Source: a virus (lineage: Duplodnaviria > Caudoviricetes). Taken from it: 64,000 nucleotides of DNA. This document shows, in pieces, positions 3,504 to 15,488 of the stretch (position 1 is its first letter; every line of letters starts with the position of its first letter). The notes under the pieces were generated by a model. It ran no database searches, was not told where the DNA came from, and was given only the letters and a program-made list of their open reading frames with translations. The stretch lies in the IMG/VR virus record IMGVR_UViG_3300032038_000012, positions 71,792 through 135,791 of that record; one strand, written 5' to 3'. The position numbers and the translations under genes were made by a program.

Positions 3504-6500
3504 ATGGCAAATTATCCAGTAAAATTATTAAAGGATAAAGATGGGACAGCTTTTATTCCTGTCGTTAATTCAGATTCCATTATTACCCCAGAGGGCGATA
3601 CTCTTAATGATTTACTAGAAGAAAAACAAGATTTATTAACTTCTGGTACTAACATTAAAACAATTAATAATGAATCTTTATTAGGGTCAGGTAATATTTC
3701 AATACAAGGTGGTGGAGATGCAACTGATGTTCAAGTTAATGGAGTTAGTATTACACAAAATAATGTAGCAAACATAGCAACTCAAACAGCATATAATTCA
3801 TTAACAAATAAGATTGCTACAAAAAATGATATTCCTACACAAACTAGTCAATTAACAAACAATAGTGGATATATAACATCATCTGTTGATAATTTAACTA
3901 ATTATACAAAAACAAATGATTTATCAGAAGTAGCGACATCAGGTTCATATGAGGATTTGTCAGATAAACCAACCACTTTAAGCGGATACGGTATTACAGA
4001 TGCAGGAATTTCAAACGGGACAATTACTTTAGGTAGTAATACTATTACACCTTCTACAGTTCAAAATATAAAAGATGGTTCTAGTACAGGTAGTTTAAGA
4101 AGTTCGGGGTCTAGGACTGAAAATGCAAATTATACCATTGGAAGTTATGCTTTTGCAGAAGGTTACAATACAAAAGCATCTGGTGGTAATTCTCATGCGG
4201 AAGGAAATTATACCGAAGCCTCTGGTAATAGTTCTCATACAGAAGGAAGTAATACAAAAGCTATTGGAACGATTTCTCATGCAGAAGGAAATTATACAGA
4301 AGCCTCTGGAAATCAATCTCATGCGGAAGGCTATTATACAATAGCTTCTGGGTCTGATTCACACGCAGAAGGAATTCGTACAGTAGCGAATGGAAACAAT
4401 GGAAGTCATAGCGAAGGATATTATGCAGAAGCTAATGGAAATTATGGGTCTCATGCTGAAGGACGTGATACAAGAGCTATTGGTGATAGTTCACATGCTG
4501 AAGGTAAGGGTGCAGTTGCATCTCAATCTTATTCGCATGCTGAAGGATGAGATACAATAGCAAGTGGAAGGTATTCACATGCGGAGGGTGGTCGCAGAGA
4601 CGGTTATCTTTTTGTAGGAACTGTTGTTTCTGTGGATGCAGAAAATCAAACTTATGAAGTTAGTGGAGTTCCAAAAGAAGCAATAAGTGATAATTTATTT
4701 TATAGTGGAGCTTTTTTCTCAGAAACTAATAATACTGATTCAGACCAAAGGATAGTTTCAGCCACTCGTTCATCTGACACAAATAATGTTACTTTTACAG
4801 TTTCAAGTTTTGACTCTTCTATAGCAGTAGGAGATAGTTTTAGAGTTTTTGCAGGATCAAAAGCAAGTGGAAATTATTCTCATGCTGAAGGAAATAGAGC
4901 TTATGCTATTGGTAATTATTCTCATGCAGAAGGAAATGATACAATTGCAATTGGAACAACTTCTCATGCAGAAGGATTTAATACATTAGCAAGTGGGTAT
5001 TGTTCTCATGCAGGAGGGAATAATACAAAAGCAAATAAAGATTATCAAACTGCAATTGGAAAATACAATAAAAATGTAAATAATGCTTTGCTTGAAGTTG
5101 GAAATGGGACTGCAGATGACTCTCGTTCAAACGCTTTTGTTGTTTATTCAGATGGAAAAGCTGAATTGGGTGCAGATCCAACTTCATCTATGCATGTTGC
5201 AACAAAACAATATGTAGATAATAAAACTAGTAGTCTTGCTTTATCTAATATAAAAGATGGTTCTGCTACAGGTAGTGTTAGAACATCTGAAGCTTCAAGT
5301 GAAGGTTCCTCTTATACTATGGGAAGAGATGCTTTTGCAGAAGGAAATAATACAAAAGCATCTGGTAATAGTTCTCATGCGGAAGGTTCTAATGCAACAG
5401 CAAGTGGGGATTATTCACATACAGAAGGAAACTGGACAACAGCTTCGGGAGGCTCTTCCCATGCAGAGGGGTATAATACAATAGCGAGTGGGAACTATTC
5501 TCATGCTGAAGGATATTATACTCAGGCAAGTGGAAATTATGGAGCTCATGCCGAAGGATCTTCAACAAGAGCTATTGGTAATAGTTCACGTGCTGAAGGA
5601 GAATACACAACAGCTTCTGGGACTTGATCACATGCAGAGGGGTATTGAGCTAGGACAGGTGGAAAAGGATCTCATGCTGAAGGAGGATGGGATTCAAGTA
5701 TACCTTATAATATTGTTGGTACAGTTGTTTCTATAGATACAGAAAATAAAACCTATGAAGTTAGTGGTTTAACTAGGTATGTTACTAATGATAAAAATTA
5801 TGTAGGAGCAATGTATCATAATAGTTCAAATGGTTGTGCTAATAGTTATTATATTACTTCAGAAACTTATAATACAGCTACTAAAAATTTTACTTTTGAA
5901 GTATCATATATAGATTCTTCTATAGTAGTTGGAGGTTCTTTTTATATAAAGATATCTTCCACTGCGCTTGGAGACTTTTCTCACTCAGAGGGAAGAAACA
6001 CTTTTGCACCAGGAACAGGTTCACATGCTGAAGGATGAAATACAATAGCAAGGTATAGTGGTTCACATGCGGAAGGAGATAGTACTTATGCAGGACCTTT
6101 TTCACATGCAGAGGGGTCTTGGACAACCGCAGAAAGCAATGGTTCTCATACCGAAGGATACGATACTTTTACTAAAGGATACGGCGCTCATGCAGAAGGT
6201 TTTGCTGCTAGAGCAATAGGAGATTATTCTCATGCTGAAGGTGGCGGAGATATTGTTACTGGAACTGTAGTTTCTTTAAATTCTACTGATAAAACTTATG
6301 AAATTAGTGGATTAACTAGATATAGTGATAGTAATAATAATTATATAGGTTGTGTTTTTTCTTATCAGGCATCATATGGTTATGGGAATCAGAACAAAAT
6401 AGTTTCGGAAACTTATGATTCTACAACTGGTAATTTTACTTTTACAGTTACAAAATTTGATGAAACTCATTTTAATGTTGGAGATAGTTTTTATATTATA

Positions 6501-11525: not shown

Positions 11526-12359
11526 ATGATTTTAAATATAAAACGATTTGCGCCAGAGTTAGATGAATATAATCCTGAATATAGTTATACCTATACTAAA
11601 AAAGGATATGTTGCAACAGTAGAGGTTTCTATTGAATGTGATTATGATATTTCAAGTATAGAATTAAGTCGAGGAGAAACTTTATTAGGAGATTTAGTTG
11701 ATGTAACTTCTGATTGAACTCTTTATAATGATGGGAGTTCCATTAAAAGAACTTTTACTGAACCTTGTCATGATACTTTTGTTATAAATTTTGAAAACGC
11801 TACTGTAACTGGATATGTTATAGTAAATACATCTGATGACTTTACCCCAGAAAGTGAACAATATCCAGTAGAAATTAATGGAGATATTCGAATTAGTAAT
11901 AGTGAAATTAAATTAAAAAAAGTTGCTGAAACGATTAAAGATTTAACGAATATTATTTATCCTGTTGGAAGTATATATAGAAGTACAAATGCGATAAATC
12001 CACAGAATATTTTTGGCGGAACGTGAACACAAATTACAGATGATACAATTGTTGCTTATGCAGAAATGTCTGGAACAACTTTAAATCAATCAAAAAATAT
12101 TTCTTCCATTACTGGATCTAGTACTTTTATAGTAACTTTTTCTAAAACTATGGCAAATACAAAATACAAGGTTTTTGTATCTGGAGAATGTAGTGGATTA
12201 GGAGCTGAAATTATAGGAGTTTATGGAAAAACAACAACAGGTTTTAAATTTGATTTTTGTAATTATAGTGGGACAGCAACAACTCCTACAAGTCAAAATA
12301 TTTTAGTAATAGGGCAACTTGCTAATCCTGAATATTACGAATGAAAAAGGACAGCATAG
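11526..12359 (+). CDS. Tail-tip protein with IYPVGSIY...WKR domain and LNIKRFA leader, 277 aa (TGA=Trp at 11715, 12024, 12342)
   Basis: FGGT[TGA]TQI matches FNGT[TGG]EQI in the 12817 paralog; YE[TGA]KRTA matches the WKR C-terminal motif. Confidence 0.85.
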
Positions 12360-12370
12360 GGGGTAAAAAT

Positions 12371-12814
12371 ATGATTATTAATACAGATTTAATTTATCCG
12401 ATAGGAGCAATTTATTTGTCAGTGTCACCTATAAATCCTAAAACTCTTTTTGGTGGAGATTGAGAAGCTATTTCTCAAGGAAGATTTTTACTTGGAGCTG
12501 GTTCTCCTGAAGCGAATACCGCAAATGATTTTGGAGATTTACAAAATTCAGGATATATTTTTCATGTTAATGATAGAGGCGGAGCTTATAAACATACTTT
12601 ATTAACAACTGAAATTCCTGCTCATAAACATCAAATAAAAACAAATAATGATGACTGGAATAATACTCAAAGTGGTGGTAACTATGGTACTACTAAGGAC
12701 GGAACTACCGCTTGGTATAATAATAACTGGTATACAGAGAATACTGGTGGAGGTCAAGCACATAACAATATGCCGCCTTATACAGTAGTTTATATGTGAA
12801 AGAGGGTGGCTTAA
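12371..12814 (+). CDS. Short tail-tip/baseplate Gp10-C-like protein, 147 aa (TGA=Trp at 12461, 12797); missing from ORF track
   Basis: MIINTDLIYPIGAIY..FGGD[TGA]EAISQGRFLLGAG..IPAHKH..HNNMPPYTVVYM[TGA]KRVA. Confidence 0.88.
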
Positions 12815-12816
12815 TA

Positions 12817-13737
12817 ATGAAAAAATTAAATATGAAAAGATTTGCAACTCCAGATCCGGGTTCAGATACTTTTGAAATAACTGTTCATTATACAGAAAAT
12901 TATAACCAAGCAGGTTATTGTAATAGTGTAACCGTATTAGTAACATCTAGTATAGCTATGGCAAGTGTAGAAAGAAATGGAGTGGATGTTGCAGAAGAAT
13001 GGAACGCAGAATTTCCTACAACTACAATTCAAAAAATTTATACTGAAAACACAACTGAAACCTTAACTTTTTCAAGTAGATATGGTGAAGAAATAACACA
13101 AACTATTGATATTATTTCAATAGATGCTCAAAGTGTTATTGGAGCAGATCCAGCAATAGATGCAAATATAAAAATTAATCCAGATATAAAAATAGAAAAA
13201 TTATCTTTAAAAGAAATAGATGAAACTGTAAGCACTTTGTTTGATTTAATTTACCCTGTTGGCTCTATTTATTATACAAATAATGCTAATTTTAGTCCTA
13301 ATGTAAGTTTTAATGGAACATGGGAACAAATTAAAGATGTATTCTTACTTGCGGCAGGAGATACTTACGTTGGTGGAACTAGCGGCGGAGACACCAACAC
13401 GGGCGCTGCTTCAGGTAATACTGGTGCTGCAACCGGAAATACAGGTTCAACTACCTTAACTGTCGATCAAATACCAGCGCATACCCATAAAGTAAAAAGA
13501 AATAATAATTATTCAAATAATTTCATGATAGATACTGGTAAGACTAATCAATGGGGTAGTGCTATAATAAATACATCAGGATATACGGCACAATCAATGG
13601 GCATTACCATTGAAAATACGGGCGGCAGTAAAGGTCATACACATACACTAAACTCACACACTCACACCTTAAACGATCATACCCACACCAATATGCCCCC
13701 TTATATTGTAGTTTATGTATGGAAGAGGGTGTCGTAA
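12817..13737 (+). CDS. Tail-tip protein (LNMKRFA leader, beta domain, IYPVGSIY...HTH...NMPPY..WKRVS)
   Basis: His-rich HTH tip repeats and Gp10-C-like termini; start moved to ATG 12817, just after the upstream stop. Confidence 0.8.
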   Translation: MKKLNMKRFATPDPGSDTFEITVHYTENYNQAGYCNSVTVLVTSSIAMASVERNGVDVAEEWNAEFPTTTIQKIYTENTTETLTFSSRYGEEITQTIDIISIDAQSVIGADPAIDANIKINPDIKIEKLSLKEIDETVSTLFDLIYPVGSIYYTNNANFSPNVSFNGTWEQIKDVFLLAAGDTYVGGTSGGDTNTGAASGNTGAATGNTGSTTLTVDQIPAHTHKVKRNNNYSNNFMIDTGKTNQWGSAIINTSGYTAQSMGITIENTGGSKGHTHTLNSHTHTLNDHTHTNMPPYIVVYVWKRVS

Positions 13738-14420
13738 TGAAAAAAAGAATGAAATTAAATATTTTAAGATTTTCAACCAGTGCTGAAGAAAATATAGACA
13801 TAAAAATTAATGCAGATTTAAAAATAGAAGGAACAGATAGAAAATTAAAAGATATTGATTTGTCATTAACCCATCTTATAGATATTCTCAATTCTCAATG
13901 TGATATTGGAGGATTATATGAAACAACAGATAGTGCTGTCGATCCTAATACTTTTTTACCTGGCACTTGGACATTATTAAGTTCTAATGTTATTGACACT
14001 GGATGGCAAAATTTTTCTTGGACTAATTCTACATATATAGGAACATCACAATCTAGTTATACTCTTAATAAATGGCGTATAACAGATAATGTTTTACACG
14101 TTGTAATAGGTGTAGGATGTACATCTACTATTAACCATGGTAACGAAGATGAAATTGCTAGAGTCCCTATTGCAAACAGTGGATTGAATGAAAGTGCAAC
14201 AAGAATATGGACGGGTGCCGTTGGTGGATCTGGATGTGTGGCAGGTTTCATTTTAAAAGAAACTTCAAATGGTGTGACAGTTGGAATAAAACCTCATACA
14301 TCTTCTACTTTTGCTACAGCTCCTTGGTATTCAACTTATTTTACTTATCCATTACCAAGTAATTTTGTTTTTAAAAGCGGTAATTATAAAAGAAAATATA
14401 TTTGGGAAAGAACAAATTAA
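13737..14420 (+). CDS. Tail-tip protein (LNILRFS leader, inserted beta receptor-binding-like domain)
   Basis: TAATG overlap with the upstream stop; paralogous N- and C-termini (IKINADLKI, PGTW, YIWERTN). Confidence 0.75.
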   Translation: MKKRMKLNILRFSTSAEENIDIKINADLKIEGTDRKLKDIDLSLTHLIDILNSQCDIGGLYETTDSAVDPNTFLPGTWTLLSSNVIDTGWQNFSWTNSTYIGTSQSSYTLNKWRITDNVLHVVIGVGCTSTINHGNEDEIARVPIANSGLNESATRIWTGAVGGSGCVAGFILKETSNGVTVGIKPHTSSTFATAPWYSTYFTYPLPSNFVFKSGNYKRKYIWERTN

Positions 14421-14436
14421 GAAGGAGGGTTAAAAA

Positions 14437-14883
14437 ATGAAAATTAATGTAGATTTTATTTATCCTATTGGATCTGTTTATATTAGTACTGAATCTATAA
14501 ACCCTTCTGTTTTATTTGGAGGGGTTTGGAAACAGACTGCAAAAAGTAGAGCTATTGTAGGAGCAGGGGCAAATATAGCTAACACAAATACAACTTATGG
14601 TTCTTTATCTGCGGGAACGTTAAATTTTACAGCTGGCACCCTTATGGGAGAATCAACACATACACTATCTATTCAAGAAATACCATCACATTCTCATGAT
14701 TTAACTGTACATTCAGGAGGAACTACAGCAGCTCCTATAGGTGGAGTAGCAAATACCGCAAATGCTTCAGGCAGTGGTCTACTAACAGATGCTAGGTGAA
14801 AAATACAAAATACTGGTGGAGGACAAGCTCATAATAATATAATGCCTATTGAAGTGTATTATATATGGAAGAGGGTGTCGTAG
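14437..14883 (+). CDS. Short Gp10-C-like tail-tip protein, 148 aa (TGA=Trp at 14797)
   Basis: Readthrough restores NTGGGQAHNNIMPIEVYYIWKRVS, matching the 12371 paralog. Confidence 0.85.
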
Positions 14884-15488
14884 TGAAAAAGTTAAATATT
14901 AAAAGATTTGCAGTTGATGATAATGCAAATATAAAAATTAATGATGAATTGAAACTTGGAACAAGTGGTATATCATTAGCAGATTTAGTAGTAATGAAAG
15001 GTTTCTTTGATATGTTTCATTTTGAAACTAAAACTTTTGGCGGAGCTACTTGGTTAAAGGTTTATTATACAAATAGTAAAAATGGAACTGTTTTATGGAA
15101 AGATATAGATGAATTAGGTTTTAGTTTGCAGGCTTATAAATGGTCTATATTGGGGATGCTTCCATATTTTTATAATAATACTTGGAAATATGAGTTCTTA
15201 TTAGAGTATCCGTCTTTAGGAAAATATAATAGATGGCGTCAAACAAGTAATCCATTATTGGCAGATCAATCTGTTTCTGGTTATAGTGCAGTAGATATTT
15301 CTATGACACAAAATAATTGGGGCGGATTAGCATTATCAAGTACAAAAGGAACCTCTTGTATTATAGATGGCTCACCTGGAGCAACAACTTGGTATTATGC
15401 AATAGGACAACAAGCTGCTTATCAAGGTGGAATTCCTGCCAATGATCCTAGTGTTCAAGAGGTTTATTTATGGATTAGAATAGGTTAA
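14883..15488 (+). CDS. Tail-tip protein with LNIKRFA leader and Trp-rich (fibrinogen-C-like?) domain
   Basis: GTG start overlaps the upstream TAG; GGATWLKVYY..KYEFLLEYP..NRWRQTSNP..WYYAIG; domain call is tentative. Confidence 0.65.
   Translation: MKKLNIKRFAVDDNANIKINDELKLGTSGISLADLVVMKGFFDMFHFETKTFGGATWLKVYYTNSKNGTVLWKDIDELGFSLQAYKWSILGMLPYFYNNTWKYEFLLEYPSLGKYNRWRQTSNPLLADQSVSGYSAVDISMTQNNWGGLALSSTKGTSCIIDGSPGATTWYYAIGQQAAYQGGIPANDPSVQEVYLWIRIG

Follow-up and report, generated by a model that had tools for sequence, protein, structure and literature searches.

A ribosomal L27-type leader on four tail-tip proteins of a gut phage that also carries a Prp protease gene

The tip-gene array and its leaders

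The genome of a gut phage, 135,791 bp (136 kb) long, contains four tail-tip genes (A, C, D and F) whose products begin with a leader that closely copies the short peptide removed from ribosomal protein L27 in Bacillota, and two short partner genes, B and E, lie among them. The array falls within the window, the whole stretch of 64,000 nucleotides that was analysed, and the positions below are those of the window unless the genome is named.

11526..12359, plus strand: tip gene A, 277 amino acids when TGA is read as Trp, with three in-frame TGA codons; residues 141-205 form a partial Gp10_C domain
11526-11549, plus strand: leader of gene A, MILNIKRF, predicted cut before the Ala at 11550
12371..12814, plus strand: short partner gene B, 147 amino acids, a bare Gp10_C domain without leader
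12817..13737, plus strand: tip gene C, 306 amino acids, comprising an N-terminal domain, an IKINPDIKIE module and a complete Gp10_C domain that has Gly-rich and His-Thr repeats
12817-12843, plus strand: leader of gene C, MKKLNMKRF, predicted cut before Ala
13737..14420, plus strand: tip gene D, 227 amino acids, with an IKINADLKIEG module, a weak N-terminal half of Gp10_C and then a different C-terminal domain
13737-13772, plus strand: leader of gene D, MKKRMKLNILRF, predicted cut before Ser
14437..14883, plus strand: short partner gene E, 148 amino acids, a bare Gp10_C domain without leader, one in-frame TGA
14883..15488, plus strand: tip gene F, 201 amino acids, GTG start, with an IKINDELKLG module after the leader and then a C-terminal domain
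14883-14909, plus strand: leader of gene F, (M)KKLNIKRF, predicted cut before Ala

All four leaders were found at the starts where the original prediction had placed them, and they share the consensus M(KK)LN[IM][KL]RF'[AS], in which the apostrophe marks the predicted cut between P1 and P1′. Gene A opens with an ATG at 11526 after a clear AAAGGAGG site and reads MILNIKRF'APE, gene C opens with an ATG at 12817 and reads MKKLNMKRF'ATP, gene D opens with an ATG at 13737 that overlaps the preceding TAA and reads MKKRMKLNILRF'STS, and gene F opens with a GTG at 14883 that overlaps the preceding TAG and reads (M)KKLNIKRF'AVD. Alternative in-frame ATG or GTG codons further upstream (MEEGVV..., MKEGGLI...) fall among the codons for the conserved C-terminus of the preceding gene, 5' of the ribosome-binding site, and short starts are also those picked by gene callers in the orthologues. 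The leaders measure 8, 9, 12 and 9 residues in A, C, D and F, respectively, and occupy the extreme N-terminus, as expected of an L27-type propeptide, whose length is about 8-14 residues; in all four paralogues P6 is Leu, P5 is Asn, P4 is Ile or Met and P1 is Phe, with Ala or Ser at P1′. A signal peptide and a lipoprotein signal were both rejected as identities of the leader, which is too short and too charged for either.

The motif is specific to these genes. Its back-translated DNA pattern matches 4 times in the window, where 100 shuffles give an expectation of 0.03 and never as many as 4 matches, and when the motif was sought throughout the 135,791 bp, as the original prediction had advised, a six-frame and N-terminus scan gave real-frame matches at the four tip starts only. 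The tip proteins A, C, D and F are the sole L27-type N-termini in the phage proteome, and no leader was found on the head proteins of the phage (the capsid-like protein, the portal and neighbouring proteins).

The domains behind the leaders differ, as had been noticed from the sequence: A, C and, weakly, D carry Gp10_C in different contexts and F carries another domain, and the partner genes at 12371 and 14437 indeed lack the motif, both being bare Gp10_C domains. In a profile search with the curated threshold, Gp10_C (PF21939), the C-terminal domain of T4 gp10 and a domain of tail-fibre and baseplate tip proteins, which is also found in 'antireceptor' proteins of Lactobacillus delbrueckii phages, scored 39.8 bits in A (partial), 93.1 in B, 66.5 in C and 84.2 in E; gene D reached 17.4 bits, under the cut-off, and gene F had no PF21939 match. 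The C-terminal domain of F, which gave weak matches to fibrinogen/ficolin-like folds, differs from those of the other tips and is possibly fibrinogen-like. In an AlphaFold2 model of the gene F product, residues 1-22 are unstructured and the C-terminal domain has a pLDDT above 90; being a monomer model, it is blind to any trimeric N-terminal structure. As to the TGA gate mentioned in the original prediction, among the leader genes in-frame TGA codons occur in gene A only (three), and C, D and F have none.

Among orthologues of gene F (n = 35), the leader is exactly 9 residues long in every case, P6 Leu, P1 Phe and P1′ Ala are each present in 35 of 35, and P5 is Asn or Asp in 30 of the 35, while the linker after the leader (10-21 residues) is hypervariable, with 26 distinct versions in the same sequences. 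Leader codons vary synonymously (TTA/CTA, ATA/ATT, AGA/CGA/CGT, GCA/GCG/GCT) with the amino acids fixed, and, as far as these codons tell, selection on the leader acts at the peptide level. Five homologues without leader have their N-terminus exactly at the KINEDLKIG module, the next conserved module; on this comparison the leader is an optional extension of the tip protein. Paralogues and orthologues together show three residues at P3 (Lys, Leu, Asn) and two at P2 (Arg, Lys), and leader types among the orthologues include MKKLILNKF'A and MK[YF]LDIKRF'A. In a single orthologue P1′ is occupied by Val (MILNIKRF'V), which counts against reading the leader as a Prp cleavage site.

The phage-encoded Prp and the likeness to L27 propeptides

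Prp is an essential ribosome-maturation protease and is studied as an antibiotic target. A phage homologue of it, which the original prediction had recommended looking for, is present at genome positions 5646-5942 (G000:C1), outside the window and 78 kb upstream of the tip genes, and encodes 98 amino acids with the catalytic dyad. The product matches PF04327 (Peptidase_Prp) over profile positions 1-89 of 90 (51.6 bits, cut-off 27, E 1.1e-14) and phrog_4478 'peptidase' (E 6e-14), and in alignment its His21 and Cys28 fall on the catalytic dyads of S. aureus Prp (4PEO; His22, Cys34) and of TM1457 (1S12). Neither residue varies within the phage Prp clade (8 sequences), and the protein is kept in relatives at 73-98% identity. 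A tblastn search of GenBank phages with the phage Prp returned nothing, searches of IMG/VR with the single protein and with an alignment found no relatives (near-identical records not being shown), and the JGI metagenomes scanned yielded two short contigs only.

The loop between His and Cys is 5 residues shorter in the phage enzyme than in the closest bacterial Prps (GHANYDTYGKDIVC vs GHCRDNN-----VC). This shortened loop omits the position of S. aureus Asp31, which is reported to be essential (D31A is inactive; PMC9405229), and has an Asp one position further from Cys, as in TM1457, a protein whose loop it resembles and whose organism has no long L27. Without the Asp31 position and with a TM1457-like loop, the activity and specificity of the phage Prp are uncertain. 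The gene sits in a tRNA array, between tRNA-Asn and tRNA-Gly and not near structural genes; flanked by a transglycosylase gene and tRNA genes, it is not in the bacterial rplU-prp-rpmA context, and an L27 gene is absent from the phage genome. The translation-support module of the phage comprises 24 tRNAs, a suppressor tRNA and a tmRNA-like gene, and the place of Prp in the tRNA array, so far from the tips, means that it may serve translation, by way of host L27, instead.

The closest bacterial Prps (46-32% identity; 300 Bacilli genomes sampled) come from small low-GC Bacilli, in whose genomes prp adjoins an L27 gene with the start MMKLNIQLF'AHKKG or ...LNIQLF'A. Set beside L27 N-termini of candidate hosts, a comparison the original prediction had called for, the tip leader is near-identical to the MMKLNIQLF'A of these bacteria: 5 of the 7 positions from P6 to P1′ are identical, with Gln replaced by Lys or Leu at P3 and Leu by Arg at P2. 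Prp is available in the system from the phage gene and also in the candidate host lineages, where prp lies beside L27. TGA read as Trp was rejected as the native code of a candidate host, the 3-kb loci around the closest bacterial Prps looking like code 11.

The suggestion that the KRF ending mirrors host L27 stands in part. L27 with Arg at P2 occurs naturally in at least 120 species, and an L27 start MKYILNIQRF'ASKKG is found in three ruminant Erysipelotrichaceae MAGs; on the other hand, the lineages with the closest Prps have Gln-Leu at P3-P2. The L27 leaders examined have Gln at P3, in rare cases Thr or Glu, and never Lys, which counts against the Prp-cleavage reading. The tip leaders agree with the published L27 motif, MLxx(D/N)LQ(F/L)F'A(S/H)KK (PMC9405229), in Phe followed by Ala and in P6 (Leu), P5 (Asn or Asp) and P4 (aliphatic), and depart from it at P3, where the motif has Gln, and at P2, where it has Phe or Leu. 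The alternation of Asn and Asp at P5 in the tip orthologues also agrees with that motif (PMC9405229).

Leaders and Prp in other phages

What is known of the leader in phages is that capsid and scaffold proteins carry it and that it was noted once on a major tail protein. Wall et al. reportedly described, in 2015, the Prp cleavage of the capsid (CP) and scaffold (SP) proteins of 80alpha and of ribosomal protein L27, and to our knowledge the only demonstrated phage role of Prp is this trimming of staphylococcal capsid and scaffold proteins, where it is unclear what the cut is for. In 80alpha, Prp cuts both proteins between Phe and Ala; the phage can do without the cut in the capsid protein and does not need the one in the scaffold, whose N-terminal sequence is nevertheless essential for assembly (PMC5744158). 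For phage phi13, one Discussion sentence in Kizziah et al. 2017 notes the motif on the major tail protein, with the suggestion that Prp is associated with large self-assembling complexes, tails included (PMC5744158). The claim that a use on tail tips had not been described must be narrowed accordingly: phi13 is a precedent on a tail protein, and no report was found on receptor-binding tips.

The tip leaders resemble the 80alpha case in being short extensions with Phe then Ala and with matching residues at P6 (Leu), P5 (Asn or Asp) and P4 (aliphatic), and in that a host L27 propeptide is copied onto several non-homologous virion proteins of one phage. They differ in their carriers, which here are four paralogous tail-tip or receptor-binding proteins, the head proteins being without leader, in P3-P2, which is Lys-Arg here and Gln-Phe/Leu there, and in the protease gene, which here is phage-borne. 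Phage phi13 likewise has an L27-type leader on a tail component, but its carrier is a tail-tube protein known from a single unanalysed remark, as against a receptor-binding tip array, a phage protease and conservation among orthologues here.

In a scan of IMG/VR, the canonical leader was found in other uncultured phages on capsid, scaffold, tape-measure, major tail and other tail proteins, which points to frequent L27-type leaders on the tail components (tape measure, tail tube, distal tail) of uncultured Bacillota phages. A Prp gene is lacking in 46 of these 50 records, and the four that encode Prp have the gene order portal or minor head protein, Prp, leader-bearing scaffold, leader-bearing capsid. 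Such head-module phages (phrog_4478; the IMG/VR records behind L320-L323) are like the present one in having their own PF04327 Prp together with leader-bearing virion proteins, but their Prp gene has the portal or minor head gene on one side and the leader-bearing scaffold and capsid genes on the other, whereas here it lies in the tRNA array, 78 kb off. The 5-residue loop deletion also sets the present enzyme apart from theirs, and it is nearer to bacterial Prps (46% identity), the Prps of the head-module phages giving no match at E 1e-3.

Related phage records without Prp number 22 (portal 65-80% identical; four of them at least 90% complete), and the leader is missing in 21; the remaining one, a fragment that is 29% complete, has the same leader array. 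Relatives that share the Gp10_C domain have ordinary MA... N-termini without leader. Two further motif matches in relatives were rejected as chance, the one at G003:119756 being antisense within a long gene and the one at G009:92179 having a TGA codon in the match. The longest contig is 138,229 bp both for a Prp cluster member and for a leader-bearing orthologue, and the two probably lie on one contig of that length. The co-occurrence of Prp and leader is essentially that of one lineage and one evolutionary event.

Possible fates and uses of the leader

The tip leader may be an L27-type propeptide that is cut by Prp between Phe and Ala or Ser, likeliest by the Prp of the phage itself, a reading that we hold with only a little more belief than doubt in the absence of cleavage data. 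The Prp-type processing or assembly tag that the original prediction had inferred for the tips is supported to this extent, by sequence evidence only, and cleavage is unmeasured. The 8-12-residue leader M(KK)LN[IM][KL]RF would be removed post-translationally after Phe and before Ala or Ser by a Prp-family cysteine protease; which protease this is can also only be inferred, the 98-residue phage enzyme being the likeliest, possibly aided by host Prp. The cut would leave a short flexible acidic/Gly/Pro linker before the conserved neck module [IV]KIN.[DE]LK, which probably attaches each tip protein to the baseplate, and since all four alternative tips bear the same leader, one protease step would serve all of them. 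The purpose of the cut is inferred by analogy with the 80alpha capsid and scaffold: the tips could share the leader as a tag for assembly or chaperoning, which would come off before they are incorporated or while this happens. As cleavage is dispensable or not required in 80alpha, cleavage of the tip leader may matter little. The phage would then probably be trimming its host-recognition proteins via a borrowed ribosome-maturation system, no cleavage having been measured. A more specific version, in which the short-loop Prp co-evolved with the K-R-F'A leaders and the tips are cut by the phage Prp and not by host Prp, seems unlikely to us at present; if true, the maturation of four alternative receptor-binding tips hangs on one phage gene, and a ribosome-maturation system has given rise to an orthogonal post-translational switch for host-range proteins.

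Cutting by host Prp only, as in 80alpha, is possible, although we think it improbable. The phage Prp would then have a separate job, for example maturing host L27 and sustaining ribosome assembly in infection as part of the translation-support module, and its location within the tRNA array (tRNA-Asn/tRNA-Gly), away from structural genes, fits such a job. The Prp-less majority of other canonical-leader phages must depend on the host, and a host Prp cutting phage proteins has published precedent (PMC5744158). However, P3 and P2 depart from candidate-host L27 in every paralogue and orthologue, as expected with a differing protease, the remodelled active-site loop of the phage Prp is conserved across its clade, and the Prp-less relatives are also without leader, save the one incomplete fragment. 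It is rather doubtful, too, that the leader goes uncleaved and acts as a tag for assembly or docking, kept in the virion or transiently binding a common chaperone or baseplate socket, with its L27 likeness coming from common ancestry or from Prp binding without cutting. Against such a tag stand the invariant P1 Phe and P1′ Ala, which are the signature of a scissile bond, the invariant catalytic His and Cys of the phage Prp clade, the hypervariable 10-21-residue linker between leader and fold, and the leaderless homologues, which begin at the neck module and so indicate that the leader is unneeded for the function of that module. Its appeal comes from the 80alpha scaffold, whose N-terminus is essential and whose cleavage is unneeded (PMC5744158), from the fit of one N-terminus on four alternative tips to a common docking site, and from the chance that the loop deletion in Prp ended catalysis with binding retained.

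We regard it as very improbable that conservation acts on the nucleotides, with the peptide a by-product of a repeated junction that couples or initiates translation or lets tip cassettes be shuffled by recombination. The junctions are indeed repeated DNA (families D1 and D3), stop and start overlap (TAATG, TAGTG), the ribosome-binding site lies within the conserved C-terminus of the upstream gene, and the leader codons are A-rich; yet the leader of gene A follows an unrelated intergenic region, the leaders change synonymously with constant amino acids, and the peptide is an independently defined protein motif, the L27 propeptide, found in organisms with different codon contexts.

If the preferred reading, a propeptide cut by Prp, is true, the Prp system extends to receptor-binding tail tips, with a phage-borne and remodelled protease, and Prp-dependent processing would be a general virion-assembly device and not a capsid curiosity. 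The leader could then aid host prediction, as it copies the L27 N-terminus of the host lineage, and foreign-host expression of such tail fibres would have to reckon with it. Additionally, the leaders with Lys at P3 and Arg at P2 and the short-loop enzyme offer natural substrate variants and a natural enzyme variant for studies of Prp specificity.

Tail-tip genes and their leader starts

Four tail-tip genes were predicted to open with a common leader, a short N-terminal peptide ending in Phe (P1) before Ala or Ser (P1'), and a check of start sites and reading frames found these starts real and correctly placed; the two short genes interleaved with them indeed lack the motif, as had been claimed. 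The genes are listed by window position, with a slash at the predicted cut.

11526 (gene A, 11526-12359): unambiguous ribosome-binding site AAAGGAGG; MILNIKRF/APE
12371-12814 (gene B): short, interleaved, without the leader motif
12817 (gene C): stop-start overlap with the preceding gene; MKKLNMKRF/ATP
13737 (gene D): stop-start overlap with the preceding gene; MKKRMKLNILRF/STS
14437-14883 (gene E): short, interleaved, without the leader motif
14883 (gene F, 14883-15488): GTG start, stop-start overlap with the preceding gene; (M)KKLNIKRF/AVD

The back-translated leader pattern matches the window four times, against 0.03 expected. The entire genome, as the original prediction had proposed, was scanned in all six frames and at protein N-termini, with no real instance beyond the four tip-gene starts; in these scans no leader stood on the terminase, the portal or the capsid-like head proteins of the phage. 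C, D and F are each preceded by a gene ending in ...[YV][MVI]WKRV[AS] (window 12780-12830, 13700-13750 and 14850-14900). The last codons of these preceding genes contain the ribosome-binding site of the next gene (GAAGAGGGTG), and stop and start overlap at the junctions, as TAATG in one and TAGTG in another, a layout that makes false 'MEEGVV' starts appear upstream in frame.

The T4 Gp10 C-terminal domain (PF21939), common to Lactobacillus delbrueckii phage 'antireceptors', is matched by B, C and E, in its first half by A, and weakly by D, while PHROG matches of the tip proteins fall in tail, tail-fibre or baseplate-wedge families; calling the genes tail-tip or receptor-binding proteins is reasonable but inferred. 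In gene A the domain stops after its first half (IYPVGSIY...FGGTW) and unrelated sequence follows, with the separate downstream gene B supplying a complete one, and D and E are paired likewise. A short [IV]KIN.[DE]LK module after the leader is common to C, D and F. The C-terminal domain of F differs from Gp10_C; in the AlphaFold2 model (pLDDT 83 overall) it is confident, with pLDDT above 90, and the top structural matches listed for the model, all weak, are fibrinogen- or ficolin-like lectin domains (E 7.5e-3, TM 0.41-0.45). Judged from the model, this domain could be an acetyl-sugar-binding tip.

A Prp gene within the tRNA array

The viral record (135,791 bp, window at bases 71792-135791), rated complete, has direct terminal repeats and a G+C content of 31%, and its portal relatives are large Bacillota siphophages (Enterococcus EF1-like, Bacillus PBC2-like, Lactococcus) and the human-gut phage Phass-1. 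Reading TGA as tryptophan is required in some plus-strand late genes (window 1-22000), and in-frame TGA is almost absent from the minus-strand early genes. A total of 24 tRNA genes, among them one whose anticodon is UCA, lie in the initial 11 kb of the genome along with a tmRNA-like gene. The search for a phage homolog of Prp, the cysteine protease that removes the N-terminal extension of Bacillota ribosomal protein L27, found one there (G000:C1 is the whole genome).

G000:C1:1-11200 (outside the window; L002): tRNA array, with transglycosylase and Prp genes embedded
G000:C1 987-1411: tmRNA-like gene, called by ARAGORN
G000:C1:5646-5942 (outside the window; L001:1501-1797): Prp gene, 98 aa, between the transglycosylase gene and tRNA-Gly; PF04327, 51.6 bits against a cut-off of 27
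G000:C1 8971-9066: tRNA with anticodon UCA, adjoining tRNA-Trp

His21 and Cys28 of the phage protein align with the catalytic dyad of Staphylococcus aureus Prp (4PEO) and TM1457 (1S12), and neither residue varies among seven homologues (73-98% identity) from public assemblies. The His-Cys loop is five residues shorter than in the closest bacterial relatives, a conserved deletion that takes in the site equivalent to Asp31, which is essential in S. aureus Prp; TM1457 has a similarly short loop. The deletion could alter specificity or reduce activity, and an altered specificity would fit leaders with Lys-Arg.

Leader conservation, L27 likeness and the readings compared

The same array occurs in close relatives, whose leaders include MKLNIKRFASGG, MKEKRIKLNINRFASGG and MEKLNIKRFAPEDPG. 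The leader is exactly 9 residues long in 35 of the 40 closest gene F homologues, and in these P6 Leu, P1 Phe and P1' Ala are invariant (35/35 each), with variation at P5 (Asn in 26, Asp in 4) and P2 (Arg in 30, Lys in 5). A Gly/Glu/Pro/Asp-rich linker of 10-21 residues follows, in 26 distinct versions, and then directly a conserved KINEDLKIG module, at which the other five homologues begin, without leader or linker. Leader codons differ synonymously, and residues 1-22 are unstructured in the gene F model. Together these data favour reading the leader as an N-terminal extension that is optional, flexible and sequence-specific, with selection acting on the peptide, and they speak against a structural strand and against a signal in the nucleotide sequence; conservation at the nucleotide level, contradicted by the synonymous changes, is very improbable. 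The gene A orthologue of a relative (L104:9931-10764, minus strand) reads MILNIKRF/VRELDEY, and with Val at P1' it may be a natural variant that is cut poorly or not at all. Four gene F homologues (P0036, P0038, P0043, P0045) carry a diverged leader, MKKLILNKF/A, in which Phe/Ala is kept, P2 is basic and P3 polar but the hydrophobic pattern is shifted, and which resembles the L27 leader MLELLIQRF/A of an uncultured Bacilli MAG (L192).

Among 300 genomes sampled from the class holding one 'uncultured Bacilli' MAG, the best matches to the phage Prp (46-32% identity) came from genomes of 0.8-1.0 Mb, at loci of 24-36% G+C. At the eight best-scoring loci with L27, that protein starts MMKLNIQLF/AHKKG (four), VLKFNIQLF/A (one) or ...QLNIQLF/A (three). 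Compared with these candidate-host N-termini, the fibre leader MK(K)LNIKRF/A equals MMKLNIQLF/A apart from Gln to Lys (or Leu) at P3 and Leu to Arg at P2, and in sequence copies a specific L27 propeptide. The published L27 motif is MLxx(D/N)LQ(F/L)F'A(S/H)KK (PMC9405229). A scan of 185,579 species' genomes gave at least 120 L27 matches with Arg at P2, those listed including MKYILNIQRF/ASKKG in three ruminant Erysipelotrichaceae MAGs and MLRI[DN]IQRF/AHKKG in Acutalibacteraceae and Ruminococcaceae, so that natural substrate variation includes Arg at P2; none of the L27s examined had Lys at P3.

Prp cleaves the F-A bond of L27 and of the capsid and scaffold proteins of staphylococcal phage 80alpha, the L27-type motif has been noted on the phi13 major tail protein, and the authors remark that Prp seems associated with ribosomes, procapsids and tails (PMC5744158). 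Nothing further was found in the literature linking Prp to tail-fibre, receptor-binding or baseplate proteins. The inferred Prp-type processing of tip proteins gains independent support from the phage Prp, the L27-like leader and the peptide conservation, all of it sequence evidence without demonstrated cleavage. On this footing the likeliest reading, held with moderate confidence, is that four alternative tail tips would each lose an L27-mimicking propeptide through Prp-type cleavage, with the phage's own Prp the probable protease. Cleavage by host Prp alone is unlikely; the location of the phage Prp gene in the tRNA array does allow it a role in host L27 maturation instead, and the phage genome contains no L27 gene. 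Next in rank, and doubtful too, is an uncleaved tag, for which 80alpha offers a parallel: its scaffold N-terminus is essential and scaffold cleavage is not, capsid cleavage being likewise dispensable (PMC5744158).

Leaders and Prp in other phages

Of 22 related IMG/VR records, whose portals are 65-80% identical and of which four reach 90% completeness or more, none has a Prp. Neither a strict nor a relaxed pattern finds the leader in 21 of these; the remaining one, a fragment 29% complete, has the same leader array. The Gp10_C fibres of three relatives examined have ordinary N-termini. Co-occurrence of Prp and leader is essentially confined to one lineage, the sole further hint being a longest contig of 138,229 bp listed both for one member of a Prp cluster and for one orthologue with the leader.

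A scan of IMG/VR for K[LF]NIQ[LF]FA returned 63 loci (L255-L317), 58 at protein N-termini. By clustering and family searches, the canonical leader M..K[LF]NIQLF/A stands on major head (17), scaffold (at least 13), phrog_372 tail (11), tape-measure (4) and major tail (2) proteins, several clusters being unidentified. Bearing an L27-type leader seems to be widespread among the tail proteins of uncultured phages, a use little described. Example loci are:

L310:85-2391, minus strand
L298:3488-5362, plus strand
L291:8374-9099, minus strand
L267:367-3003, minus strand
L263:6680-8065, plus strand

Prp is encoded in 4 of 50 canonical-leader phage records (L320 in G352, L321 and L322 in G371 and G355, L323 in G359), each with the order portal/minor head protein, Prp, leader-bearing scaffold, leader-bearing capsid, and with downstream leaders such as MPYKFLIQLF/A and MKELKFNIQLF/A; this gene order connects the Prp genes of phages with virion proteins that bear the leader.
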